A DNA stretch of 64,000 nucleotides from Candidatus Nealsonbacteria bacterium (GCA_003557645.1 PWNV01000020.1:14328-78327); one strand, 5' to 3'. Counted from the stretch's first letter, positions 4,092-62,474 are shown. The notes: generated from the letters alone by a model not told the origin. Made by a program: numbers and translations.

Positions 4092-4301
4092 CTACTCTCC
4101 CCACTTTTCGGTATCATCGTCATCTTCTTCCTCCTCCTCTACTTCACTCTCTTCAACTTCTTCGGTAACTTCTTCTAGCGGCTCCTCTCTTGTTTCTTCT
4201 ACTTGAGGTTCTTTTTCCTTTGGCGTTTCTTGCTTGTTCATCATATACCAAACCACAGCACCCACCAACAAAATTATTCCTAAAATTAACCAAATTGGCA
4301 T
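4092..4301 (-). CDS. membrane-anchored hyperacidic microprotein (69 aa)
   Basis: N-terminal TM helix IWLILGIILLVGAVVWYMM, then acidic tail EEVTEEVEESEVEEEEEDDDDTEKWGE. It has its own terminator. Confidence 0.6.
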   Translation of the reverse strand: MPIWLILGIILLVGAVVWYMMNKQETPKEKEPQVEETREEPLEEVTEEVEESEVEEEEEDDDDTEKWGE

Positions 4302-4325: not shown

Positions 4326-4334
4326 TCGACCTTG
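4326..4334 (-). promoter_or_regulatory. AAGGTCG box (CAAGGTCGA), 24 nt upstream of the 69-aa gene ATG
   Basis: Minus-strand reading is GGGATTCAAGGTCGATTTAAACTATAACGTATATAAATC-ATG. This is the weakest of the five copies and lies in the last codons of murC. Confidence 0.35.
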
Positions 4335-31469: not shown

Positions 31470-32243
31470 TTAGGGCTGAAGGATTTCCTCGGTCTCTCCT
31501 TCAATTGATATTACAACTTCTTCTATTGTCTCAAATTGCAAAAGCGTGTTTTCAATTTGGTCTCGAATCATTGTAACTGTTGCACTGCCTGAAGCATCCA
31601 ATTCTTCACTAAAATCGGCACGAGCAACTCCATTCTCGACAGTGAGAGAATTAAGGGTTGTACCCCCCTCAATCGCTGTTGTATAGTTTTCCTCCATTTC
31701 TGGTCCATCTAAAAGAGTTAGAAGTGTAAACCTTTCCACGTTGTCTGTAGAAACCTCTCTCTCTACCGAAACAAGACTCTCTTGACCATCCTCTACACTG
31801 ACAAAGTAGACATCTACTCTTGTTGTCTCTTCCTCCTCTTCTTCTTCAATCATTGCTCCAGCATGCTCATCAAAAACTCCATCAGTAATAGCACTCACAA
31901 CTTCTCCACCTTCTACTCTAACTACAGTTGTATGAGGAGTTATTACTTGCGCAGCCATCTCTCCCTCTTCAACCTTTCCATAACCAGCAAACATGGCCTC
32001 AAACTCAAGTACTATCTCAAACAAACCTTCTTCTATTTCTTCGGTGCTAATGTGGGTTAATCCTTCTCCCTCTCTTTCAACAAATGTAGGTGCCATTTTT
32101 TCAACCCACTCCTCCGCTACTACCTCAGCTTCTGTCGCAGCCTCATCATCAGGAATTTCAGGAGCCTCCATTCTTGAGATAAGGACACCTGCGACAACAA
32201 TTACAAGAATTACAACTACTACTATAATTAATTTATTACCCAT
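31470..32243 (-). CDS. membrane-anchored acidic protein with C-terminal GerMN-like domain
   Basis: 257 aa with an N-terminal TM helix and a Glu-rich middle (IEEEEEEETT). The C-terminus reads LLTLLDGPEMEENYTTAIEGGTTLNSLTVENGVARADFSEEL. Confidence 0.65.
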   Translation of the reverse strand: MGNKLIIVVVVILVIVVAGVLISRMEAPEIPDDEAATEAEVVAEEWVEKMAPTFVEREGEGLTHISTEEIEEGLFEIVLEFEAMFAGYGKVEEGEMAAQVITPHTTVVRVEGGEVVSAITDGVFDEHAGAMIEEEEEEETTRVDVYFVSVEDGQESLVSVEREVSTDNVERFTLLTLLDGPEMEENYTTAIEGGTTLNSLTVENGVARADFSEELDASGSATVTMIRDQIENTLLQFETIEEVVISIEGETEEILQP

Positions 32244-32265: not shown

Positions 32266-32805
32266 TTAACTCGACCTTTTACGATGAATCTTCGTCAACA
32301 TTCTTTTTACCTTATAGGGATCCGGTATATCCTGAAACACAAATTCTCTAAACTTTCCTGCAGTTTGTATTTGTAAATTACCATAATTAAAAAAAGTTGG
32401 CAACACTCCCTTAACATCAACACTAATATCCTGTATACGGTCATGATACACGCTGGAAACATAACGATTAAAAAGACCATGTAACTCCGTGTGTATCGTT
32501 CTCTGATTAGTAATTATCCAACAATCAAAAAAATAGCTAAACATAACAACAAAAATACACTGCCAAAAAAGAAAAAGGATAAAAAAACAAAGAAAGAAAA
32601 GGTAAAGAAGAACATTGAACTCTCCCACATGTTCAAAAATAAAAGCAACTCCCTCCGATTCATGAATTGATAAAAACGGTAAGATGAAAACAAAAACTAA
32701 GCTACCAATAAAAACAAGGGCGAAAGGAAACACCTTTATTTTTAAAATTAACGGATGCCTTTGTAAAACAAGTAAGATTTTCTCTTTTTCTCTTAGCTTA
32801 AACAT
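32266..32805 (-). CDS. membrane protein with bacterial PH (YdbS/YdbT-like) domain
   Basis: ORF 32266..32892. I prefer Met30 at 32805 (MFKLREKEKILLVLQRHPL), which leaves only an 8-nt overlap with the upstream 66-aa ORF. It has 2-3 TM helices and then a PH-like C-terminus. Confidence 0.6.
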   Translation of the reverse strand: MFKLREKEKILLVLQRHPLILKIKVFPFALVFIGSLVFVFILPFLSIHESEGVAFIFEHVGEFNVLLYLFFLCFFILFLFWQCIFVVMFSYFFDCWIITNQRTIHTELHGLFNRYVSSVYHDRIQDISVDVKGVLPTFFNYGNLQIQTAGKFREFVFQDIPDPYKVKRMLTKIHRKRSS

Positions 32806-33100: not shown

Positions 33101-33328
33101 TTACTCTTCTTCTTCCTCTTCTTCTTCTTCCTCTTCTTCCTCTTCTTCCTCTTCTGGGTCAACTGGATCAACTGGGTCATCTATGTCAATCGGATCATCT
33201 ATGTCAATCGGATCATCTATGTCAATTGGGTCAATTGGATCAACATCGTCTCCTAAAGAAACAACTCCTACAAGAACTACTACCGCCAGCACGAGAACTA
33301 CTGCAATAAGAATTTTCTTGGTATCCAT
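33101..33328 (-). CDS. membrane-anchored hyperacidic repeat microprotein (75 aa)
   Basis: MDTKKILIAVVLVLAVVVLVGVV (TM helix), then DDVDPIDPIDIDDPIDIDDPIDIDDPVDPVDP, then 17 consecutive Glu. It has its own promoter-like region and terminator. Confidence 0.65.
   Translation of the reverse strand: MDTKKILIAVVLVLAVVVLVGVVSLGDDVDPIDPIDIDDPIDIDDPIDIDDPVDPVDPEEEEEEEEEEEEEEEEE
33174..33227. repeat. 18-bp tandem repeat x3 (coding, DPIDID units), next to a 51-nt homopyrimidine (GAA/GAG)n tract at 33104..33154
   Basis: The units are gggtcatctatgtcaatc, ggatcatctatgtcaatc and ggatcatctatgtcaatt. Confidence 0.85.
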
Positions 33329-33351: not shown

Positions 33352-33360
33352 CCGACCTTT
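33352..33360 (-). promoter_or_regulatory. AAAGGTCGG box 23 nt upstream of the ATG, 7 nt after a TATACT -10-like hexamer
   Basis: Minus-strand reading is TTGTATaaatttgaaaatttaaTATACTtacaatcAAAGGTCGGttttaaattttaaaaaaaactatATG. Confidence 0.45.
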
Positions 33361-48722: not shown

Positions 48723-48983
48723 CTATGCCCTGTAAACCTTATATCCTTCTCTCACTTTTTCTTTTACTTTTACCCCTACCTCGTTTCTGGGAGAGGCTTT
48801 TTCCACCTTCTTATAATCAACCTCCATAGAATTAATTTTTTGCTCAAAATCTGTCAAACCTCCCACAAACCTTATCTTTTCACCTTTTTCCAATTTCTTG
48901 GAAAGCTTAATAATTGCTACTTCAATATTTCCAAAATAGTGAGAAACTACACCTATTTGTTCCCCTTCTTTATTTGGCATCAT
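48723..48983 (-). CDS. small beta-barrel protein (EF-Tu domain-2-like, tentative)
   Basis: 86 aa. GVVSHYFGNIEVAIIKLSKKLEKGEKIRFVG...EVGVKV resembles translation-factor domain II-like stand-alone proteins. Confidence 0.5.
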   Translation of the reverse strand: MMPNKEGEQIGVVSHYFGNIEVAIIKLSKKLEKGEKIRFVGGLTDFEQKINSMEVDYKKVEKASPRNEVGVKVKEKVREGYKVYRA

Positions 48984-49008: not shown

Positions 49009-49017
49009 ACGACCTTT
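49009..49017 (-). promoter_or_regulatory. AAAGGTCGT box 25 nt upstream of the ATG, 6 nt after TATAAT
   Basis: Minus-strand reading is TTGTTATAATcgaatcAAAGGTCGTtatttttttattactaaaagcattaATG. Confidence 0.45.
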
Positions 49018-55277: not shown

Positions 55278-57791
55278 CTATGGTGCTAGTTTTCTTACCT
55301 CAAAATGCTCTTCATCAACAGTAAACCTATCCCCTTCTTGGATATATCCCTCTAGAACTGCAGAGGCAAGCTTGTTACTAATATTGTCTTGTATAGCACG
55401 CTGCATTTCCCTTGCTCCAAAAACAGGATCATATCCTATCTCCATAATTTTTTCTTTTAGAGCTTCAGTAATCACAAAATGCATATCTTTCTTAATAAAA
55501 TTCTTAGCCATTTCTTCCAGCTGAATTCCAGCAACATCAATAAGATTTTCTCTGCTTAATGGTTTAAAAATAATAACATCATCAAAGCGATTAACAAACT
55601 CTGGACGAAATACAGATGTTTGAAAAAGTCTTTTTAATATTTTTGCCTTTACTTTTCCCCATCCCAGTTTCTGCTCGATAGCATCAAGAATAATTTGATA
55701 TCCGGCATTGCTGGTGGCAATGACCATAGTGTTACGAAAATCGACCCTTCTTCCCTCTCCATCAGTAATATGCCCTTCATCCAATATTTGCAAAAACAAA
55801 TTCAATATATCCGGGTGCGCTTTCTCAATCTCATCTAACAATATAAGGGAAAAAGGATCTTCTCTCACTCCAGAGGTTAAGACTCCTTCTTCTTGTGATG
55901 ATCCAATAATGCGTTGTACATCGGAAATATTTTGAAATTCGGACATATCGATACGATTTATCTTTTTTTCCGAACCAAAATAAACATCTGCAATCGCTTT
56001 TGCCATTTCAGTTTTACCCACTCCCGTTGGCCCTAAGAATAGAAAGCCTCCTATCGTCCCTTTCCTTACACCCACATCCGCTCTAGAGCGTCTAAGGGCC
56101 GAAGAAACCGCTCTAACAGCGTTTTCTTGATTAACAATTCTTTTATGAATTAAGTCCTCCAAATTAAGAAGTACCTCTTTTTCTTTTTCATCCAACCTTC
56201 CTACCGGAACCTCGGTCTTTTCTGATATGATTTCCGCAACATGATCTTGCAAAACAATATCTTCTTCTTTTTGATCAGCGTGAACTACTGCTTCCTCAAG
56301 CAAAGTAAAAGCTTTTTCAGGGAAGGCTTCATTTTGCATATACTTATCCGAAAATTCTATCGCTTTCTTGATTGATCCAAAAGAAATTAATTTATGATAC
56401 TTGTTCTCTAAAGAGAGAGCTAGTTTCTCTAACAAAATAAGTGCTTCTTCGTGTGATATTTTTTTCATTTCTACTTTCTCCATGAGAGAGAAGAGAGTAG
56501 AGTTCTTTTCAATGTTTTTTCGAAAACCTGCAAAATCAGTAACACCGATCAATCGAAACGAAGGAATGTGTAAATAAGGTTCTAAAATTCCAGAAATATT
56601 GATTACTCCTGGCCTCTGTTCTCCTGCTATGAATTTGTGAAGATCATTGATAACCAGTATAACGTTTCCTGCTTTCACCGCCTCACCAAACATTTTATCT
56701 AATATCTTTTCTGTTTCTTCTAGTCCCTCTGTGCGTGCCAAAACTGACGAAAGATCAAGTTCTAAAATACGTAAATAATTGGTCCCCTGAAGCCCTTCTC
56801 CAAGAAAAGATCTTCTGGCAATCTCCTGAATTATACTTCTCCTTCCTGCTCCTGAATCTCCAACCAAAACGACACTGTTTATTTCTTCACGAGACATAAC
56901 TCTTTCCAGTGATTTTATTTCCTTTCTGTGTCCAACTGTTTCTGGGAATCCGGATAATTTCATTTTCTCCGTCCAATCTATAGAGAAATTATCAAGAAGA
57001 GGAGTATATCCAAAATTCCATTCTTTTCCTATGCTTCCTAGCTTAATTAAATTCTTATAAAGCAACGGGCTCTCTTTTTTCCTAAGTCGTTTCCGCCATG
57101 AAGTAAGATCATACATGTCATCCTCAGTCATTCCATTATAATATATAGTATCTCTTAAGTAATTATTGTGTTTGCTTAGTGCTACAAATAAATCTCCAGG
57201 AGTTATTCTTTCGTTCTTCCTTCTTGCAGCAACTACCAAAGCCTCTTTCATCGTCTTCGTAAAACAAGGAGATTTTTCTTTATTATTAATCATCTCTCTC
57301 TCATCAAAAATAAACTTCAAGTCTCGGAGAACATTTTTTTTACTAATTAATGCACGATGAAAAACGAAATCCATATCCCGAGCTTTTTTTAATAGATAAT
57401 AAAGCAAAAGATAAGAGTCTGCTCCCCCCTTTCTTTCGACTGCCTCCATGATGCAAGCACTTTCAAAATTTAAAAACTCTGCAAGATTAACTTCGTCAAG
57501 GTGACTAAGAGCATTCTTTTTGCTTATTAAGAGCTTTGGTCTTGTAACGGAATATTTAAAAAACAACTCCAGCTGTAAAAAAATTAAAAAAAGGCAAAAG
57601 AAGAAAAAACTAATCTCGAGAAAGTAAGAGCTTGTATTAAGAGTTTTTTGTAACGCAAAGCCTAAAAGAGACAAGATGGATAACACAAAAAAGAAGACCT
57701 TCAAAGCTCCAGCATTTCCAAAGACTGGAATCTTGCCGATTAAAAGGGCTTTATATATGGCTGATTTTTTTAAATCGAACTTAATATCCAT
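55278..57791 (-). CDS. membrane-anchored Clp/Hsp100-type double AAA+ ATPase with degenerate first nucleotide-binding module
   Basis: 837 aa with 2 N-terminal TM helices and Clp_N-like repeats. D1 has Walker A GDSGAGRRS (Lys replaced) and Walker B ILVINDLH. D2 is canonical: GPTGVGKTE, LILLDEIEKAH and the ClpB_D2-small domain. Confidence 0.85.
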   Translation of the reverse strand: MDIKFDLKKSAIYKALLIGKIPVFGNAGALKVFFFVLSILSLLGFALQKTLNTSSYFLEISFFFFCLFLIFLQLELFFKYSVTRPKLLISKKNALSHLDEVNLAEFLNFESACIMEAVERKGGADSYLLLYYLLKKARDMDFVFHRALISKKNVLRDLKFIFDEREMINNKEKSPCFTKTMKEALVVAARRKNERITPGDLFVALSKHNNYLRDTIYYNGMTEDDMYDLTSWRKRLRKKESPLLYKNLIKLGSIGKEWNFGYTPLLDNFSIDWTEKMKLSGFPETVGHRKEIKSLERVMSREEINSVVLVGDSGAGRRSIIQEIARRSFLGEGLQGTNYLRILELDLSSVLARTEGLEETEKILDKMFGEAVKAGNVILVINDLHKFIAGEQRPGVINISGILEPYLHIPSFRLIGVTDFAGFRKNIEKNSTLFSLMEKVEMKKISHEEALILLEKLALSLENKYHKLISFGSIKKAIEFSDKYMQNEAFPEKAFTLLEEAVVHADQKEEDIVLQDHVAEIISEKTEVPVGRLDEKEKEVLLNLEDLIHKRIVNQENAVRAVSSALRRSRADVGVRKGTIGGFLFLGPTGVGKTEMAKAIADVYFGSEKKINRIDMSEFQNISDVQRIIGSSQEEGVLTSGVREDPFSLILLDEIEKAHPDILNLFLQILDEGHITDGEGRRVDFRNTMVIATSNAGYQIILDAIEQKLGWGKVKAKILKRLFQTSVFRPEFVNRFDDVIIFKPLSRENLIDVAGIQLEEMAKNFIKKDMHFVITEALKEKIMEIGYDPVFGAREMQRAIQDNISNKLASAVLEGYIQEGDRFTVDEEHFEVRKLAP

Positions 57792-58186
57792 TTTATTGAT
57801 AAGAACAATCCCCCACTAACTATAAAGGGTATCAACACCCAAAAAAACAAAAGGAAAAATCCAACGAAAGCAACAAATATCTCAGCAAAAATACCAATAA
57901 TTATCAGCATCATCCTCATCGCCATTCCAATCAATCTAGAGAACGTATTGAAAATTATAATCTCGGCATATCTCTTAATGTCAAATCCTCTACCATAGGA
58001 AGTTTGATACTTGTGCCACGGAGAAAAAAACGTTTGCATTAAACGAAAGACAGAGAAATAATTGAAGCTAAAACGCAAAAAATCTTGCCAACGCAAGAGA
58101 ATTTCTTGAAGGACTATAACATAATGCCAGGAAATCCAGGAAACAAAAATACTTTTTCTTTCTGTCACTTTAATCATTGCAATCAT
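57770..58186 (-). CDS. integral membrane protein (138 aa), coupled to the Clp-like gene
   Basis: ORF overlapping the Clp-like start by 22 nt. It has FSPWHKY and 2-3 TM helices. Confidence 0.6.
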   Translation of the reverse strand: MIAMIKVTERKSIFVSWISWHYVIVLQEILLRWQDFLRFSFNYFSVFRLMQTFFSPWHKYQTSYGRGFDIKRYAEIIIFNTFSRLIGMAMRMMLIIIGIFAEIFVAFVGFFLLFFWVLIPFIVSGGLFLSIKWILSSI

Positions 58187-58206
58187 TATAATTCAAAGAC
58201 CATCTA

Positions 58207-58254
58207 TTGACAATAGTTTCTTTCAAATTATAATGTCCATAGAAAAAAGGTCGG
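58207..58254 (+). promoter_or_regulatory. sigma70-type promoter TTGACA-N16-TATAAT followed by an AAAGGTCGG box
   Basis: The sequence TTGACAatagtttctttcaaatTATAATgtccatagaaaAAAGGTCGGtatac, with the box at 58246..58254, 54 nt before ATG 58309. Confidence 0.55.
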
Positions 58255-58308
58255 TATACTTTATGAAGTAAAAAAATAACACTTTCCTTAAACGGGAAAA
58301 GAAAATAT

Positions 58309-58536
58309 ATGTTTTTTTCAGACCAAAAAGAAACCTTTAAAAGAGAACCTTTCGCAATGTTAGAAGAAGAGGAAGGAGAAGAAGACGATTTAGATCTTGA
58401 AGATGATTTAGATCTTGACGACGATTTAGATCTTGACGAAGATTTAGATTTGGACGATGAAGATCTGGATGATTTTGATGACGAAGAAGAGGAAGAAGAA
58501 GAAGAGGAGGAGGAAGAAGACGAAGAAGAATTATAA
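58309..58536 (+). CDS. soluble hyperacidic repeat microprotein (75 aa)
   Basis: MFFSDQKETFKREPFAMLEEEEGEE, then DDLDLEDDLDLDDDLDLDEDLDLDDEDLDDFDD, then a poly-Glu tail from residue 59. It has a consensus promoter and a strong terminator. Confidence 0.6.
   Translation: MFFSDQKETFKREPFAMLEEEEGEEDDLDLEDDLDLDDDLDLDEDLDLDDEDLDDFDDEEEEEEEEEEEEDEEEL
58384..58473. repeat. 18-bp tandem repeat x4-5 (coding, DDLDLD units)
   Basis: The units are gacgatttagatcttgaa, gatgatttagatcttgac, gacgatttagatcttgac, gaagatttagatttggac and gatgaagatctggatgat. Confidence 0.8.
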
Positions 58537-58552
58537 AAAAGACCACAACGAT

Positions 58553-58588
58553 AAAAAGCCCCTTGTTTTAAAACAAGGGGCTTTTTTA
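58553..58588. terminator. bidirectional terminator between the acidic gene (+) and acyP (-)
   Basis: Perfect 12-bp arms GCCCCTTGTTTT/AAAACAAGGGGC are flanked by AAAAA and TTTTTT. Confidence 0.8.
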
Positions 58589-58666
58589 AAAAGGAGAGTT
58601 CATTAAAAAATAAATAGCGATAATAATGGCCACTATAATCCCTAAAAAATCTAATCTTTTCATGTT

Positions 58667-59029: not shown

Positions 59030-59452
59030 TCATTTTCCTTTCACTTTAATCTCTTTTGTACCTCCTTTTTTCGGACTGACTTTGGGTAAAACAACTTTTA
59101 GCACTCCCTTTTCATAATTCGCTTCTGCCTTTTCCTCGTTTACTCTAGAAGGCAATTTCACCGCTCGCTCACAAGACCCTTTTCGGATTTCCTTTTTCCA
59201 ATAATTTTTCTCTTTTTCTTCTTTTTCTTCCTTTGTTTCCGCACTCACTCTAAGTACTCCGTCCTCTACTTGTAATTTGATGTCTTTGGGGTCGATGTTA
59301 GGCAAGCTAACTTCTACTACAACATCTTTACCTGTTTCATAAACATCTATTTCTGGTTCGGAGAGATTTTTAGAAAAAACTGGAAGAAACCAGTCTTCAT
59401 CGCCAAAAAAATCAGGCATCTCTCCAAAAAATTTCTTTGGTACAAGTGCCAT
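59030..59452 (-). CDS. small heat-shock protein (Hsp20/alpha-crystallin)
   Basis: 140 aa with the alpha-crystallin domain DVYETGKDVVVEVSLPNIDPKDIKLQVEDGVLRVSAE...GVLKVVLPK. Confidence 0.92.
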   Translation of the reverse strand: MALVPKKFFGEMPDFFGDEDWFLPVFSKNLSEPEIDVYETGKDVVVEVSLPNIDPKDIKLQVEDGVLRVSAETKEEKEEKEKNYWKKEIRKGSCERAVKLPSRVNEEKAEANYEKGVLKVVLPKVSPKKGGTKEIKVKGK

Positions 59453-59476
59453 ATTTTAATTAAAATTGGCTTATCT

Positions 59477-59518
59477 CCGACCTTTTTTTATTTATAACAA
59501 ATCTAATTATGATGTCAA
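59477..59518 (-). promoter_or_regulatory. hsp20 promoter TTGACA-N16-TATAAA followed by an AAAGGTCGG box, 24 nt from the ATG
   Basis: Minus-strand reading is TTGACAtcataattagatttgtTATAAAtaaaaAAAGGTCGGagataagccaattttaattaaaatATG. Confidence 0.6.
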
Positions 59519-59598: not shown

Positions 59599-61383
59599 AT
59601 GCAAATTTTTGAACTTTATTTTAATCCAGAAAATAAAGAGAAGCTGTTAGAAAGTTTTGTTCATCAGCCAAAGAACGCTTATGAGCGTAAGCTGGGTAAG
59701 ATTTACATGGTTGGAGAGATTCTAGAGATAAGCGAAGAAGACTCCCCTCTTTTGCAGAATATATTCCATATCGCAAAAGAAAAATATTATAAAGACACCT
59801 CTCTTTTGCCCGAAAAGGCTCTCGAAGAAACCTTAAAGAAAATAAACCTTTTTCTAGAAGATAAAGGATATCAGGGAAAAATGAACATCGCCCTTCTTTC
59901 TTCTAAAAATTTCTCCATTCATGTTGCTAGAATAGGAAAAATAAAAATTGTCCTTCTTGCTAGTGGTAAAATAAAAAATATCTGCGAGGACCTAAGTGAA
60001 TCACAAGGAAACGTTTTTCATAACATAATTTCCGGAAAAATGAAAAAGGAGGACAAGCTCCTTGTATTAACTCCTGAAATTTATCATTCTTTCGTAAAGG
60101 GAAAGCTCTTTCAAGAAATGATGGAAAAACCTTTAAGCGATGATTTGATGGAAAAAATTTCTTCTTTGCAAAAGGAAAAGTTTCCCGCCGTTTCTGGTCT
60201 TTCTTTGATTATGGACCATGCTTTAAACCTAGAAGAAAAACCACAGATAATAGCAGGTACAAAGAAAAAAACATTTTCTTTTCAAAAATTATTTAATGAA
60301 GTTATCCTATCACTTTCAAAAATCAAGAAACCCGATTTTAAAACACCTAAAATTAACATTAGCAAGAAGCCATTAACACTTCTTTCTCTTCTTCTTCTTG
60401 TTGTCTCTATAGGTTACCTTACAATAAGTATAGAAAATAATATAAGAACCGGAAAACAAATGGAAGCCCTTTCCAAGATAGAAGAAAACATCGCCAAAGC
60501 TACCGAAGAAAAAAATATTGCTGTTTTAAAAGAAATACTTGATGAAATAGAAGACCTAAAAAAATCTAGAACAAATCTAAGTCAAGAGATTAACGATCAA
60601 CACTCTCTTCTCGAAAGTAAATTGCTTCATCTCTCACAATGGGAAAAAGTAGAAGACATTGAGCTAATTAAGAGTTTTGAAGATATTAATCCAGAAAACT
60701 TTTTACTTGCAGAAAATCGCATCTACCTTTTTACATCAGAATCACCTGAACTCTTTGCTCTAAACCTTGAAACAAGGGAAATAGAGAATAAATACTCCCT
60801 TGTCTCAGATAATGGTATCACGCTATCTTCCTTTTCCCAGAACAAACCAATGTTTTATGCACCCCCTAAACATTTCTTCTCTATTGAGGGTGGGGCACTC
60901 TCTACCTCTGAAATTTCTAAAGATGACCAAGACTACATTTCGCTTTCCTCTTTCTTAGGGGTTCCATACTTTCTCCAGAACAATGGAGAAATAGTTTCTT
61001 ATCGAAATAAATACCCCGGAACATGGCTAGAAAAAGATGAAACAAGAATAAAAGATCCACTTGCTCTGGCAATTGATGGCTCCATCTTTGTTCTTGATAA
61101 AATCAACAAAACACACCGTTACTACAAGGGACGATATGAGGAAAAAATTAATTATTCTATTTTCCCTCCTTTCCGAGCAGATAAAATAAAAACTTCTTAC
61201 GAGCTGCCCCTTTTCTTTTTAGATGTTCAAGGGAAGCGTATAATTATTGGAAGTAAGGAAGGAAAAATTGAAAAGCAACTCTACCTTCCAGAATTAACAA
61301 ATCCGAAGGATATTGCTATCACTTCGGATGGAAAAAAAATATACCTCTTGGATAACCAAGAGATATATCTAATAGAAATTTAA
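59599..61383 (+). CDS. bitopic membrane protein: N-terminal PPM/SpoIIE-like fold (tentative), TM helix, coiled coil, C-terminal beta-propeller-like repeats
   Basis: 594 aa with TM helix LTLLSLLLLVVSIGYLTISI at ~aa 260. The C-terminus has repeated IYLF/IFVLD/IYLLD strands. I recognise no catalytic metal-binding Asp pairs. Confidence 0.65.
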   Translation: MQIFELYFNPENKEKLLESFVHQPKNAYERKLGKIYMVGEILEISEEDSPLLQNIFHIAKEKYYKDTSLLPEKALEETLKKINLFLEDKGYQGKMNIALLSSKNFSIHVARIGKIKIVLLASGKIKNICEDLSESQGNVFHNIISGKMKKEDKLLVLTPEIYHSFVKGKLFQEMMEKPLSDDLMEKISSLQKEKFPAVSGLSLIMDHALNLEEKPQIIAGTKKKTFSFQKLFNEVILSLSKIKKPDFKTPKINISKKPLTLLSLLLLVVSIGYLTISIENNIRTGKQMEALSKIEENIAKATEEKNIAVLKEILDEIEDLKKSRTNLSQEINDQHSLLESKLLHLSQWEKVEDIELIKSFEDINPENFLLAENRIYLFTSESPELFALNLETREIENKYSLVSDNGITLSSFSQNKPMFYAPPKHFFSIEGGALSTSEISKDDQDYISLSSFLGVPYFLQNNGEIVSYRNKYPGTWLEKDETRIKDPLALAIDGSIFVLDKINKTHRYYKGRYEEKINYSIFPPFRADKIKTSYELPLFFLDVQGKRIIIGSKEGKIEKQLYLPELTNPKDIAITSDGKKIYLLDNQEIYLIEI

Positions 61384-61828: not shown

Positions 61829-62344
61829 TTAATTCTCCTTTTTAGCGTTCGCTAAAACATAAAGAAGTCCTCTTGTATTTCCTTCTAATACATACAAAAG
61901 ATTTTTCATAGGAGCTGCCATGGTACCGAGAAGCTTTGCCATAAGAACTTCTCTAGAAGGCAACTCTGCAAGACTTTTAACTTCTTCAAAACTTATTACA
62001 CTGTTTTCAAAAAATCCTCCAAGAATCACAATGGCCTCATCCTTGGCGAATTTATTTACAATTTTTGCGGTTCCTACTCCATCTTGATAACTAAAAATAA
62101 ATCCCACCTCTCCGTCAAATGACTGAGGATCAAAGTCAATCCCCTCTTCCTTGAAGGCAATTTTAGCTAGGGTTTTTCTTGCAACCATCATTTTTGCTTC
62201 AGATTTATGAAGCTCACTTCTAAGGCTATGGGCACTTTCTCCTTTCATCCCCTTGAAATTAATGAAAAATACCCCCTTTTGTTTGGCAAGATTTTCCCTA
62301 AACTGTTTTACTATTTCCTTTTTCTTTTCTTTATTAATGGTCAT
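61829..62344 (-). CDS. rplJ: ribosomal protein L10
   Basis: 171 aa immediately upstream of rplL, with the typical L10 N-terminal domain and C-terminal L12-binding helix. Confidence 0.92.
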   Translation of the reverse strand: MTINKEKKKEIVKQFRENLAKQKGVFFINFKGMKGESAHSLRSELHKSEAKMMVARKTLAKIAFKEEGIDFDPQSFDGEVGFIFSYQDGVGTAKIVNKFAKDEAIVILGGFFENSVISFEEVKSLAELPSREVLMAKLLGTMAAPMKNLLYVLEGNTRGLLYVLANAKKEN

Positions 62345-62450
62345 AAAAAAACTGCTTTTAAAAAGCAGACAGTAACATTGAAATCTCTGAAACTATCCTC
62401 GGTAGGAATTTACGTGAACTTTTCACTGCCTACTGTCTGCGGATTCTTTT
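62345..62450 (-). promoter_or_regulatory. structured rplJ 5' leader (candidate L10-leader autoregulatory RNA)
   Basis: The 130-nt untranslated gap has a perfect 10-bp long-range pairing GCAGACAGTA (62440..62431) / TACTGTCTGC (62374..62365). It is followed by an alternative mini-hairpin CTGC-TTTTTAAAA-GCAG and TTTTTTT just before the ATG. Confidence 0.5.
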
Positions 62451-62474
62451 TTCTTGTTGTAATTATAAGAAACT

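Follow-up and report, generated by a model that had tools for sequence, protein, structure and literature searches.

In eukaryotes, the long aspartate/glutamate (D/E) tracts of DAXX, prothymosin-alpha and the ANP32 and SET tails act electrostatically on basic or misfolded clients, and the proteins that carry them are mostly nuclear and part of larger or histone-linked proteins. Among bacteria, the hydrophilins GsiB of B. subtilis and YciG and YmdF of E. coli are small, repetitive, hydrophilic, disordered and stress-associated, and are expressed from strong dedicated promoters. Here we describe a gene at positions 58309..58536 (+) of a 64,000-nucleotide stretch of Candidatus Nealsonbacteria DNA (GCA_003557645.1 PWNV01000020.1:14328-78327; hereafter the window) that is predicted to encode a hyperacidic protein of 75 residues. 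It differs from the eukaryotic poly-D/E proteins, which have no interspersed leucine periodicity and no link to a membrane AAA+ machine, and from the hydrophilins, which are not polyanions, have other repeats and depend on alternative sigma factors rather than on a sigma-70-type promoter followed by a leader box. The Hero proteins of animals are alike in being small, hydrophilic, extremely charged and disordered, with a poorly conserved sequence and a preserved composition and charge, and their proposed action, that of a charged polymer preventing aggregation, is alike as well (PMC7067378). However, there is no homology to Hero proteins, and the present family is bacterial, from the candidate phyla radiation (CPR), shorter (64-85 aa) and 64% D/E, with a conserved N-terminus and a fixed gene neighbourhood. 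No family in the databases searched covers the gene; in kind its product resembles known highly charged disordered protectants. The reading that we prefer, to which we assign a probability of about 0.35, is that the protein would be an abundant, stress-linked disordered polyanion, a Hero-like electrostatic shield or holdase docked by its N-terminus.

The open reading frame (ORF) spans 228 nt and 75 codons, a length that was given in a preliminary description of the locus and that we confirmed on recount, and its translation is MFFSDQKETFKREPFAMLEEEEGEEDDLDLEDDLDLDDDLDLDEDLDLDDEDLDDFDDEEEEEEEEEEEEDEEEL. Forty-eight residues are acidic (22 D, 26 E), giving a net charge of -45. This D+E content of 64% compares with a mean of 15.7% across the proteins of the window, whose median isoelectric point (pI) is 7.6, indicating that the acidity is that of an outlier and not the product of a genome-wide bias. 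An N-terminal segment of about 17 residues, rich in aromatic and aliphatic side chains, is followed by fast-evolving (D/E)3-Leu-type repeats and then by an acidic tail. The N-terminal segment (residues 1-17, MFFSDQKETFKREPFAM, encoded at 58309..58359 (+)) is the sole part that is not of low complexity and the sole part conserved in sequence; the D/E run begins at residue 19. The acidic hexapeptide block had been attributed to 18-bp DNA repeats, and tandem repeats of this length encoding (D/E)(D/E)DLDL were indeed detected at 58381..58470 (+). Tandem Repeats Finder reported the unit GAAGACGATTTAGATCTT at 58381..58449 (3.8 copies, 92% matches), and a separate repeat search traced decaying copies, up to five, as far as 58470. 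The same program identified a GAA/GAG run at 58483..58530 (+), which encodes the poly-Glu tail (residues 59-74). A single-sequence AlphaFold2 model, which is weak evidence, had a predicted local distance difference test score (pLDDT) of 55 and no secondary structure, and searches of Pfam, NCBIfam, PHROG and PADLOC yielded no family match for the protein.

Homology searches with the 75-aa protein, including HMMER, returned no match, and exact look-ups of the window proteins and of the strain and orthologue proteins found none in a collection of 15 billion proteins. With direct searches empty, we therefore traced the family by synteny. The gene lies divergent from an operon for a membrane protein of 138 aa and an Hsp100/Clp-like ATPase; a search with the Clp-like protein supplied the relatives, and the syntenic region of each was then inspected (L-numbers below denote these related loci). 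Matches to the Clp-like protein came from Candidatus Nealsonbacteria metagenome-assembled genomes (MAGs), at 75% identity in L001 and 58% in L006 and L008, and from other Patescibacteria too. At least six related Nealsonbacteria-like genomes carry an intact orthologue of 64-85 aa at the syntenic position, divergent from the Hsp100-like operon: 79 aa in L001 (MFLSDQKEIRKRELLGMM...), 64 aa in L002 (MFFSDENELNKKFFAM...), 71 aa in L006 (MFLSDQNEIYKNFFAMM...), 81 aa in L008 (MFFSNQEDINKKIVAM...), 68 aa in L013 (MFLSNQNEINKKFFAT...) and a variant of 85 aa in L007. A wider survey, which took the 138-aa membrane protein as its anchor and covered 72 metagenomic loci, revealed shorter acidic ORFs (40-57 aa) in the same divergent position in two more clades, one type beginning MVYDKF... 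(42-57 aa; L017, L020, L027, L033, L036, L061 and L084) and the other beginning MIEDRLISPLFS... (40 aa; L040). In all clades the acidic ORF is accompanied by a consensus sigma-70 promoter, a leader box and a GC-rich terminator, in the same orientation. The preliminary description had argued for a real gene family rather than chance low complexity and had named a search in related genomes as a check; the intact ORFs retained at the syntenic position bear this out.

Of the six frames, +0 alone is free of stops in all six close orthologues. The N-terminus follows the pattern MF[FL]S[DN][QE]x[ED][ILT]xK[KRN]..., with M1, F2, S4 and K11 invariant in six genomes, and 11 of its 17 residues are identical between the window and L001, similar to the flanking genes (66-75%). 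Among differing codon pairs in the N-terminal 16 codons, 114 are non-synonymous and 23 synonymous, and conservation of this segment is, by these comparisons, moderate and pattern-like rather than strict. Beyond the reading frame, the net charge and a pattern of hydrophobic residues over the N-terminal ~17 positions, the family conserves nothing. The six close members have net charges of -45, -43, -37, -37, -41 and -37, while their D:E ratio ranges from 22:26 to 35:8 and their length from 64 to 81 aa. From one genome to the next the repeat units are unlike and have been separately homogenised, and the poly-Glu tail of the soluble protein is confined to the closest relatives. A near-identical strain, L088 (830..1054; Joint Genome Institute (JGI) 3300000563, SL_3KL_010_SED), compared with the window over 58200..58600, has as its sole difference an in-frame 3-nt deletion in the GAA run and so encodes a protein of 74 aa with one poly-Glu codon fewer; repeat length is therefore polymorphic in the population. 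That the charge stays steady while D:E ratio, length and repeats shift points to selection on charge and speaks against RNA composition or any particular repeat being the object of selection. Collectively, these comparisons argue for selection that keeps the frame, the N-terminal segment and the total negative charge while leaving length, D:E ratio and repeat sequence free to change.

The low complexity of the sequence, its open antisense frames and the lack of a match in the large protein collection or by HMMER would all be expected of a spurious ORF thrown up by GA-rich repeat expansion in an intergenic region. We find this scarcely credible, since it is contradicted by the conserved start, N-terminus, frame, promoter, box and terminator, and by the JGI annotation, which calls the gene. 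The start, N-terminal peptide, frame and regulatory signals are kept across genomes whose Clp-like proteins are only 47-75% identical. We conclude that 58309..58536 is a genuine, strongly promoted, monocistronic gene, as predicted from these signals, and that it belongs to what is, among the genomes compared, a lineage-restricted family of Nealsonbacteria-like Parcubacteria. Translation or the RNA itself could conceivably be what matters, the D/E run serving as a Mg2+ sensor that destabilises ribosomes in the manner of mgtL, or the transcript as a GA-rich sponge RNA. D/E runs within the first 30-40 residues risk abortive, Mg2+-dependent translation and are avoided by proteomes (PMC9718836), and the run here starts at codon 19. 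However, RNA composition is not conserved, GAU/GAC codons dominating in L008 and GAA/GAG in the window gene, whereas charge and frame are, and MgtL-type control would have no target in cis because a strong terminator and a convergent gene directly follow the ORF; we consider an explanation of this kind very unlikely. The retention of so costly a run from residue 19 onward implies that the product is needed.

The expression signals of the gene matched their earlier description. A sigma-70-type promoter, TTGACA-N16-TATAAT, lies at 58207..58234 (+) and agrees with the consensus at 12/12 positions, and the same arrangement is found upstream of the orthologues. Downstream, the perfect inverted repeat of an intrinsic terminator was located at 58553..58586, with arms of 17 nt set between an A-run and a T-run (-22 kcal/mol, z = -5.2); judged by its sequence, it can function on both strands and so be used by the acidic gene and by the convergent acylphosphatase-hsp20 transcript. 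Comparable GC-rich hairpins follow every orthologue. The 5' untranslated region contains a weak 6-bp hairpin, UUUCCU/GGGAAA, at 58283..58299 (+), whose position is conserved in the orthologues. Its stability in the window is not significant (z = -1.1 and 0.08); the corresponding values in L006 and L008 are -3.0 and -3.1. In the other clades the leaders fold into strong structures (z = -3.0 to -4.8) in which compensatory changes are few. Those of the MVYDKF type (L017, L020, L027 and L033) are long and strongly structured (z = -3.8 to -4.8); their apical part has variable insertions, and AAGGT, some 10 nt ahead of the ATG, forms part of the 3' arm of a stem. They may be regulatory RNA structures. 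An Rfam search at a permissive threshold gave terminator look-alikes only, and a check for ROSE, fourU and Hsp17-type RNA thermometers found nothing beyond this terminator noise and the z-scores above. As to a thermometer that masks the Shine-Dalgarno (SD) sequence, the window hairpin is not significantly stable and the genome is nearly devoid of such sequences. Two candidates were discarded: pairing of the box with the first codons (GGUC:GACC in some folds), which involves only 3-5 bp and is not conserved in L002 or L008, and an upstream mini-ORF anchored on the box (ATGAAGTAA in the window leader), which is missing in L001.

STAB-SD-type 5' mRNA stabilisers of Bacillus, such as that of cryIIIA (GAAAGGAGG), place a purine-rich AAAGG element near the 5' end of the transcript. 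The leader of the acidic gene carries a box, AAAAAAGGTCGG, with the core AAAGGTCG, at 58241..58254 (+), 11 nt after the -10 hexamer, which presumably puts it at the start of the transcript or close to it. Both elements lie far upstream of the start codon, on genes that are, or in the case of the box are expected to be, highly expressed; unlike STAB-SD, the core AAAGGTCG is no canonical SD sequence. Within it, the box AAAGGTCGG that the preliminary description had pointed out was confirmed at 58246..58254 (+). The window contains three copies where 0.39 would be expected; the other two lie upstream of hsp20 and of a second 75-aa acidic ORF at 33101..33328 (-), so that the box links these three genes. 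It is located 3' of a sigma-70-type promoter in both 75-aa genes and their orthologues, and it is kept upstream of all acidic orthologues and upstream of hsp20 in four genomes. AAAGGTCG preceded by an A-rich stretch was present 40 times in a non-redundant set of related DNA (494 kb), compared with 15.4+-3.7 (maximum 24) expected from a dinucleotide-preserving simulation. Some 28 of the copies are situated 5-17 nt after a -10 hexamer and upstream of an ORF, and all of these are sense-oriented. On short leaders devoid of SD-like sequences, the box begins 31-40 nt ahead of the ATG; among these are the leaders of hsp20 in four genomes, the membrane-anchored acidic protein in three, SIMPL/DUF541 proteins, a DUF5652 membrane protein, a Germane-domain acidic lipoprotein (31470..32243) and an 86-aa protein (48723..48983). 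The heptamer AAGGTCG is found 10 times in the window (4.1 expected), and 6 of the 10 precede monocistronic genes at a distance of 31-62 nt. The box is found in the leader of each of the window's three small hyperacidic ORFs.

For hsp20 (59030..59518 (-)), a promoter TTGACA-N16-TATAAA at 59518..59491 is followed by the box at 59485..59477, which starts 33 nt before the ATG (24-nt spacer). Our box search located further window copies at 49017..49010, 32279..32272 and 4333..4327 (all -), and examples in relatives include L005 3779, L039 2654, L047 140, L048 96 and L069 7315. The Germane-domain protein (31470..32243 (-)), which has the box upstream, possesses a signal/anchor sequence, a pI of 4.05 and an internal EEEEEEE; in L085 its gene is found in synteny with that of the anchored acidic protein.

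We favour the idea that the box is an RNA-level leader element, a putative stabiliser or translational enhancer, because its orientation is strict, its position is transcribed and it forms no palindrome; it may instead be a one-sided operator or protein-binding site. An SD-like sequence 5-15 nt upstream of the start is present in almost no gene (54 window starts), and translation initiation in this genome appears from its sequence to be largely SD-independent. Considered as a variant SD sequence, the box is 31-62 nt from the ATG and missing from other genes. A CtsR operator was dismissed: the box contains GGTC, but no second heptad follows at a fixed spacing. No CIRCE element (TTAGCACTC-N9-GAGTGCTAA, <=3 mismatches) was detected anywhere in the window, hsp20 included, and CIRCE/HrcA control of the acidic gene was rejected. 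In the relatives, CIRCE was found only upstream of hsp20 in L002 and L006 and not upstream of the acidic gene. In these two loci a CIRCE-like inverted repeat sits between the hsp20 promoter and the box (L002 84..104, L006 5475..5495), with arms TTAGCACTT-N9-GAGTGCTAA and CTGGCACTT-N9-GAGTGCCAG, respectively. Since the hsp20 box directly follows CIRCE there, its position is tied to the start codon and not to the promoter.

The operon divergent from the acidic gene (55278..58186 (-)) comprises the genes for the 138-aa membrane protein (57770..58186) and the 837-aa Hsp100/Clp-like ATPase (55278..57791), which overlap by 22 nt; the pair is conserved in about 80 Patescibacteria loci. On the other flank lies a convergent acylphosphatase gene and then hsp20. 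Domain searches of these neighbours substantiated the earlier description of a proteostasis patch with the Clp-like operon on one side and acyP-hsp20 on the other. The acidic family adjoins the Hsp100-like operon in all members, and hsp20 is nearby in 4/7 close members; in L006 it lies between the acidic gene and the operon. A promoter predicted for the operon, TTGTCA-17-TATAAT (-), stands back-to-back with that of the acidic gene, and the two -35 hexamers overlap on 7 bp (58207..58213). The shared base pairs suggest that RNA polymerase would bind the two promoters in a mutually exclusive manner; read from sequence, this overlapping promoter is not kept in L001. The 138-aa membrane protein belongs to no Pfam family. 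The ATPase has an N-terminal transmembrane region and a degenerate first Walker A motif (GDSGAGRRS, with Arg for Lys in most relatives), and it scores under every NCBIfam ClpA/B/C cut-off. Near the Clp-like operon there is often a divergent gene (59599..61383 in the window) for a 594-aa membrane protein of unknown function. Farther along, an Rfam search placed a ribosomal protein L10 leader (RF00557, 51.9 bits) at 62337..62460 (-), upstream of rplJ-rplL.

This arrangement invites the idea that the acidic protein is a dedicated partner of the membrane Hsp100/Clp-like machine, acting as an adaptor, regulator, decoy or pseudo-substrate whose N-terminus would have its docking site on the N-domain of the ATPase or on the 138-aa protein and whose tail would gate, occupy or thread the AAA+ pore. 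Divergent adjacency is kept in three sub-clades whose membrane proteins are 37-67% identical, the promoters in the window share overlapping -35 hexamers, and the sole conserved part of the protein is a short aromatic/aliphatic N-terminal motif typical of docking motifs. However, most operon loci have no adjacent acidic gene, hsp20 intervenes in L006, the promoter overlap is not conserved in L001 and neither ClpS, MecA nor any other adaptor shows homology to the protein, Pfam and NCBIfam yielding no match. On what these sequences suggest, a dedicated partnership is possible but unlikely. Among named Clp adaptors, the search covered ClpS, MecA and McsA/B, and no adaptor domain of Pfam or NCBIfam matched.

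On the Hero-like reading that we prefer, the protein would act by bulk electrostatics, in the manner of animal Hero proteins, poly-D/E chaperone regions or polyphosphate, and would keep unfolded or basic proteins soluble. Its N-terminal segment would dock on a partner, be it the adjacent membrane AAA+ machine, Hsp20 or the membrane, and the box would act in the leader at the RNA level, on expression or stability, in a genome with little use for SD sequences. A link to proteostasis is supported by the adjacency of the Hsp100-like operon, the proximity of hsp20 and the box that the gene has in common with hsp20. For Hero proteins, anti-aggregation activity is set by charge, composition and length and not by sequence (PMC7067378). 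Several points weigh against this proposal. The chaperone-like role is drawn from analogy and gene neighbourhood, and an acidic ORF accompanies the membrane-protein/Clp-like operon in only 9 of the ~63 metagenomic loci with enough upstream sequence, most being without one. The box marks a broader set than heat shock, since genes for SIMPL, Germane, DUF5652 and other envelope proteins carry it, and the acidic gene lacks the CIRCE that hsp20 has in L002 and L006. Scrambled polymers of 42 aa were inactive and those of 100 aa active in the Hero study, and the 40-85 aa of the present family fall in between (PMC7067378). Finally, the habitat is a hypersaline soda lake (PMC6146748), so that a role in ion or pH balance is equally conceivable.

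The records of the relatives (B1Sed10, CSSed10) and the JGI contig SL_3KL_010_SED derive from hypersaline soda-lake sediments, in which Nealsonbacteria are abundant, haloalkaliphilic and proposed to follow a salt-in strategy (PMC6146748). The longest and most charged acidic proteins occur in the soda-lake clade, and shorter ones (net -15 to -26) elsewhere, for example on a Hainich groundwater contig. In such a setting, the soluble polyanion and two tethered acidic-tail proteins of the window could provide fixed negative charge, in the cytoplasm as a counter-ion or buffer for K+, Mg2+ and Ca2+ and at the cell surface as a trap for cations and protons, for which the acidic wall polymers of alkaliphilic Bacillus offer an analogue. 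The soda-lake origin of the closest relatives, the extreme versions found in their clade and the common box of three acidic-tail proteins with unlike predicted topologies are in keeping with an ionic function. Nevertheless, the window proteome is not strongly acid-shifted (median pI 7.6), polymerised anions are osmotically weak, the habitat metadata cover few loci, and both the N-terminal motif and the Clp/hsp20 neighbourhood would be left unexplained. We therefore hold this analogy-based account to be a candidate, though an unlikely one.

Extreme, regularly spaced negative charge and nothing else is also what one might expect of a nucleic-acid mimic whose tail would be a competitor of DNA or RNA in binding basic proteins, among them HU, RNA polymerase and ribosomal proteins, in the way of the acidic tail of RNA polymerase delta or of phage and bacterial DNA-mimic proteins. 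The idea is improbable: the protein matches no phage or defence family in Pfam, PHROG or PADLOC, no folded scaffold was predicted (AlphaFold2, single sequence), the context is chromosomal and syntenic and not mobile, and in place of a delta-type N-terminal domain there are just 17 non-acidic residues. The known DNA-mimic families (Ocr, ArdA, DMP and Ugi types) were excluded because of the lack of matches in these three databases, the predicted disorder and the chromosomal, syntenic locus.

The second 75-aa protein of the window (33101..33328 (-), box at 33360..33352) is membrane-anchored and reads MDTKKILIAVVLVLAVVVLVGVVSLGDDVDPIDPIDIDDPIDIDDPIDIDDPVDPVDPE17. The preliminary description had taken the two proteins for members of one paralogous family, citing their exactly equal length and a poly-Glu run that begins at residue 59 in both. 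Counting by hand reproduced the onset at residue 59, and the contrast between a soluble N-terminus here and a transmembrane (TM) helix there also held, the two N-terminal sequences being unrelated. The family is real, as shown above for the soluble protein, but paralogy is not supported: BLASTP gave no alignment between the two proteins even at E<=100, the alignment of the two loci that had been named as a check showed no similarity beyond the GAA/GAG run of the DNA, and the two proteins have separate orthologues. Equal length is no sign of kinship either, but chance, as L088 encodes 74 aa and the orthologues 64-85 aa. With no protein alignment, and DNA that aligns in the GAA/GAG run only, equal length and equal poly-Glu onset are coincidences of one strain. 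Repeat units are also unlike, DDLDL(D/E) in the soluble protein and DPIDID in the anchored one. The orthologues of the anchored protein are encoded 3' of an inositol-monophosphatase gene in L085 (77 aa; the same genome as L001) and L087 (80 aa). The MD[TN]KKILI... anchor is retained in both, and the acidic repeats include proline (DPIDID, DPELEL, DPVDDI); only the window protein and that of L085 have a poly-Glu tail.

A third small protein of this kind, 69 aa long (4092..4301 (-)), combines an N-terminal TM helix, MPIWLILGIILLVGAVVWYMM, with an acidic tail. The tail is E/D-rich and ends EKWGE, and the gene lies between murC and the trigger-factor gene and has its own terminator. AAGGTCG at 4333..4327 (-) starts 32 nt before its ATG (25-nt spacer). 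Both anchored proteins are like the soluble one in being small, with acidic/aliphatic repeats, a poly-Glu or D/E tail, a AAAGGTCG/AAGGTCG box and terminators of their own; they differ from it in the N-terminal TM helix and in their separate orthologues and neighbourhoods, and the 33101..33328 protein also in its Pro-containing repeats. On present sequence evidence, the resemblance of the two 75-aa proteins is best read as shared composition and shared regulation and not as demonstrable common descent.

These relations lead to a broader speculation, which we regard as doubtful: the leader element AAAGGUCG might mark an undescribed post-transcriptional regulon in soda-lake Nealsonbacteria, or in SD-poor Parcubacteria, that drives hsp20 together with envelope and polyanion genes. 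Its polyanions, by prediction one soluble, one tethered facing out and one tethered facing in, would replace polyanions of the polyphosphate or teichoic-acid type in proteostasis and in charge and cation homeostasis. In the literature we found no paper on hyperacidic small proteins in Patescibacteria, and a search with the box-motif string was uninformative.

Small low-complexity genes such as the acidic gene escape the sequence tools used here. This one is nevertheless conserved, has a strong promoter and is located beside the few chaperone genes of a reduced genome, in organisms that are not culturable alone. If its product is a polyanionic protectant or a partner of the Hsp100-like machine, the idea of charged disordered polymers as chaperones would extend from animals to minimal bacteria, and the family would offer a handle on how episymbiotic CPR cells survive haloalkaline stress. 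The most interesting by-product of this analysis is the box common to hsp20, envelope genes and all three small acidic proteins, which is a candidate for a new cis-element in genomes largely without SD sequences.

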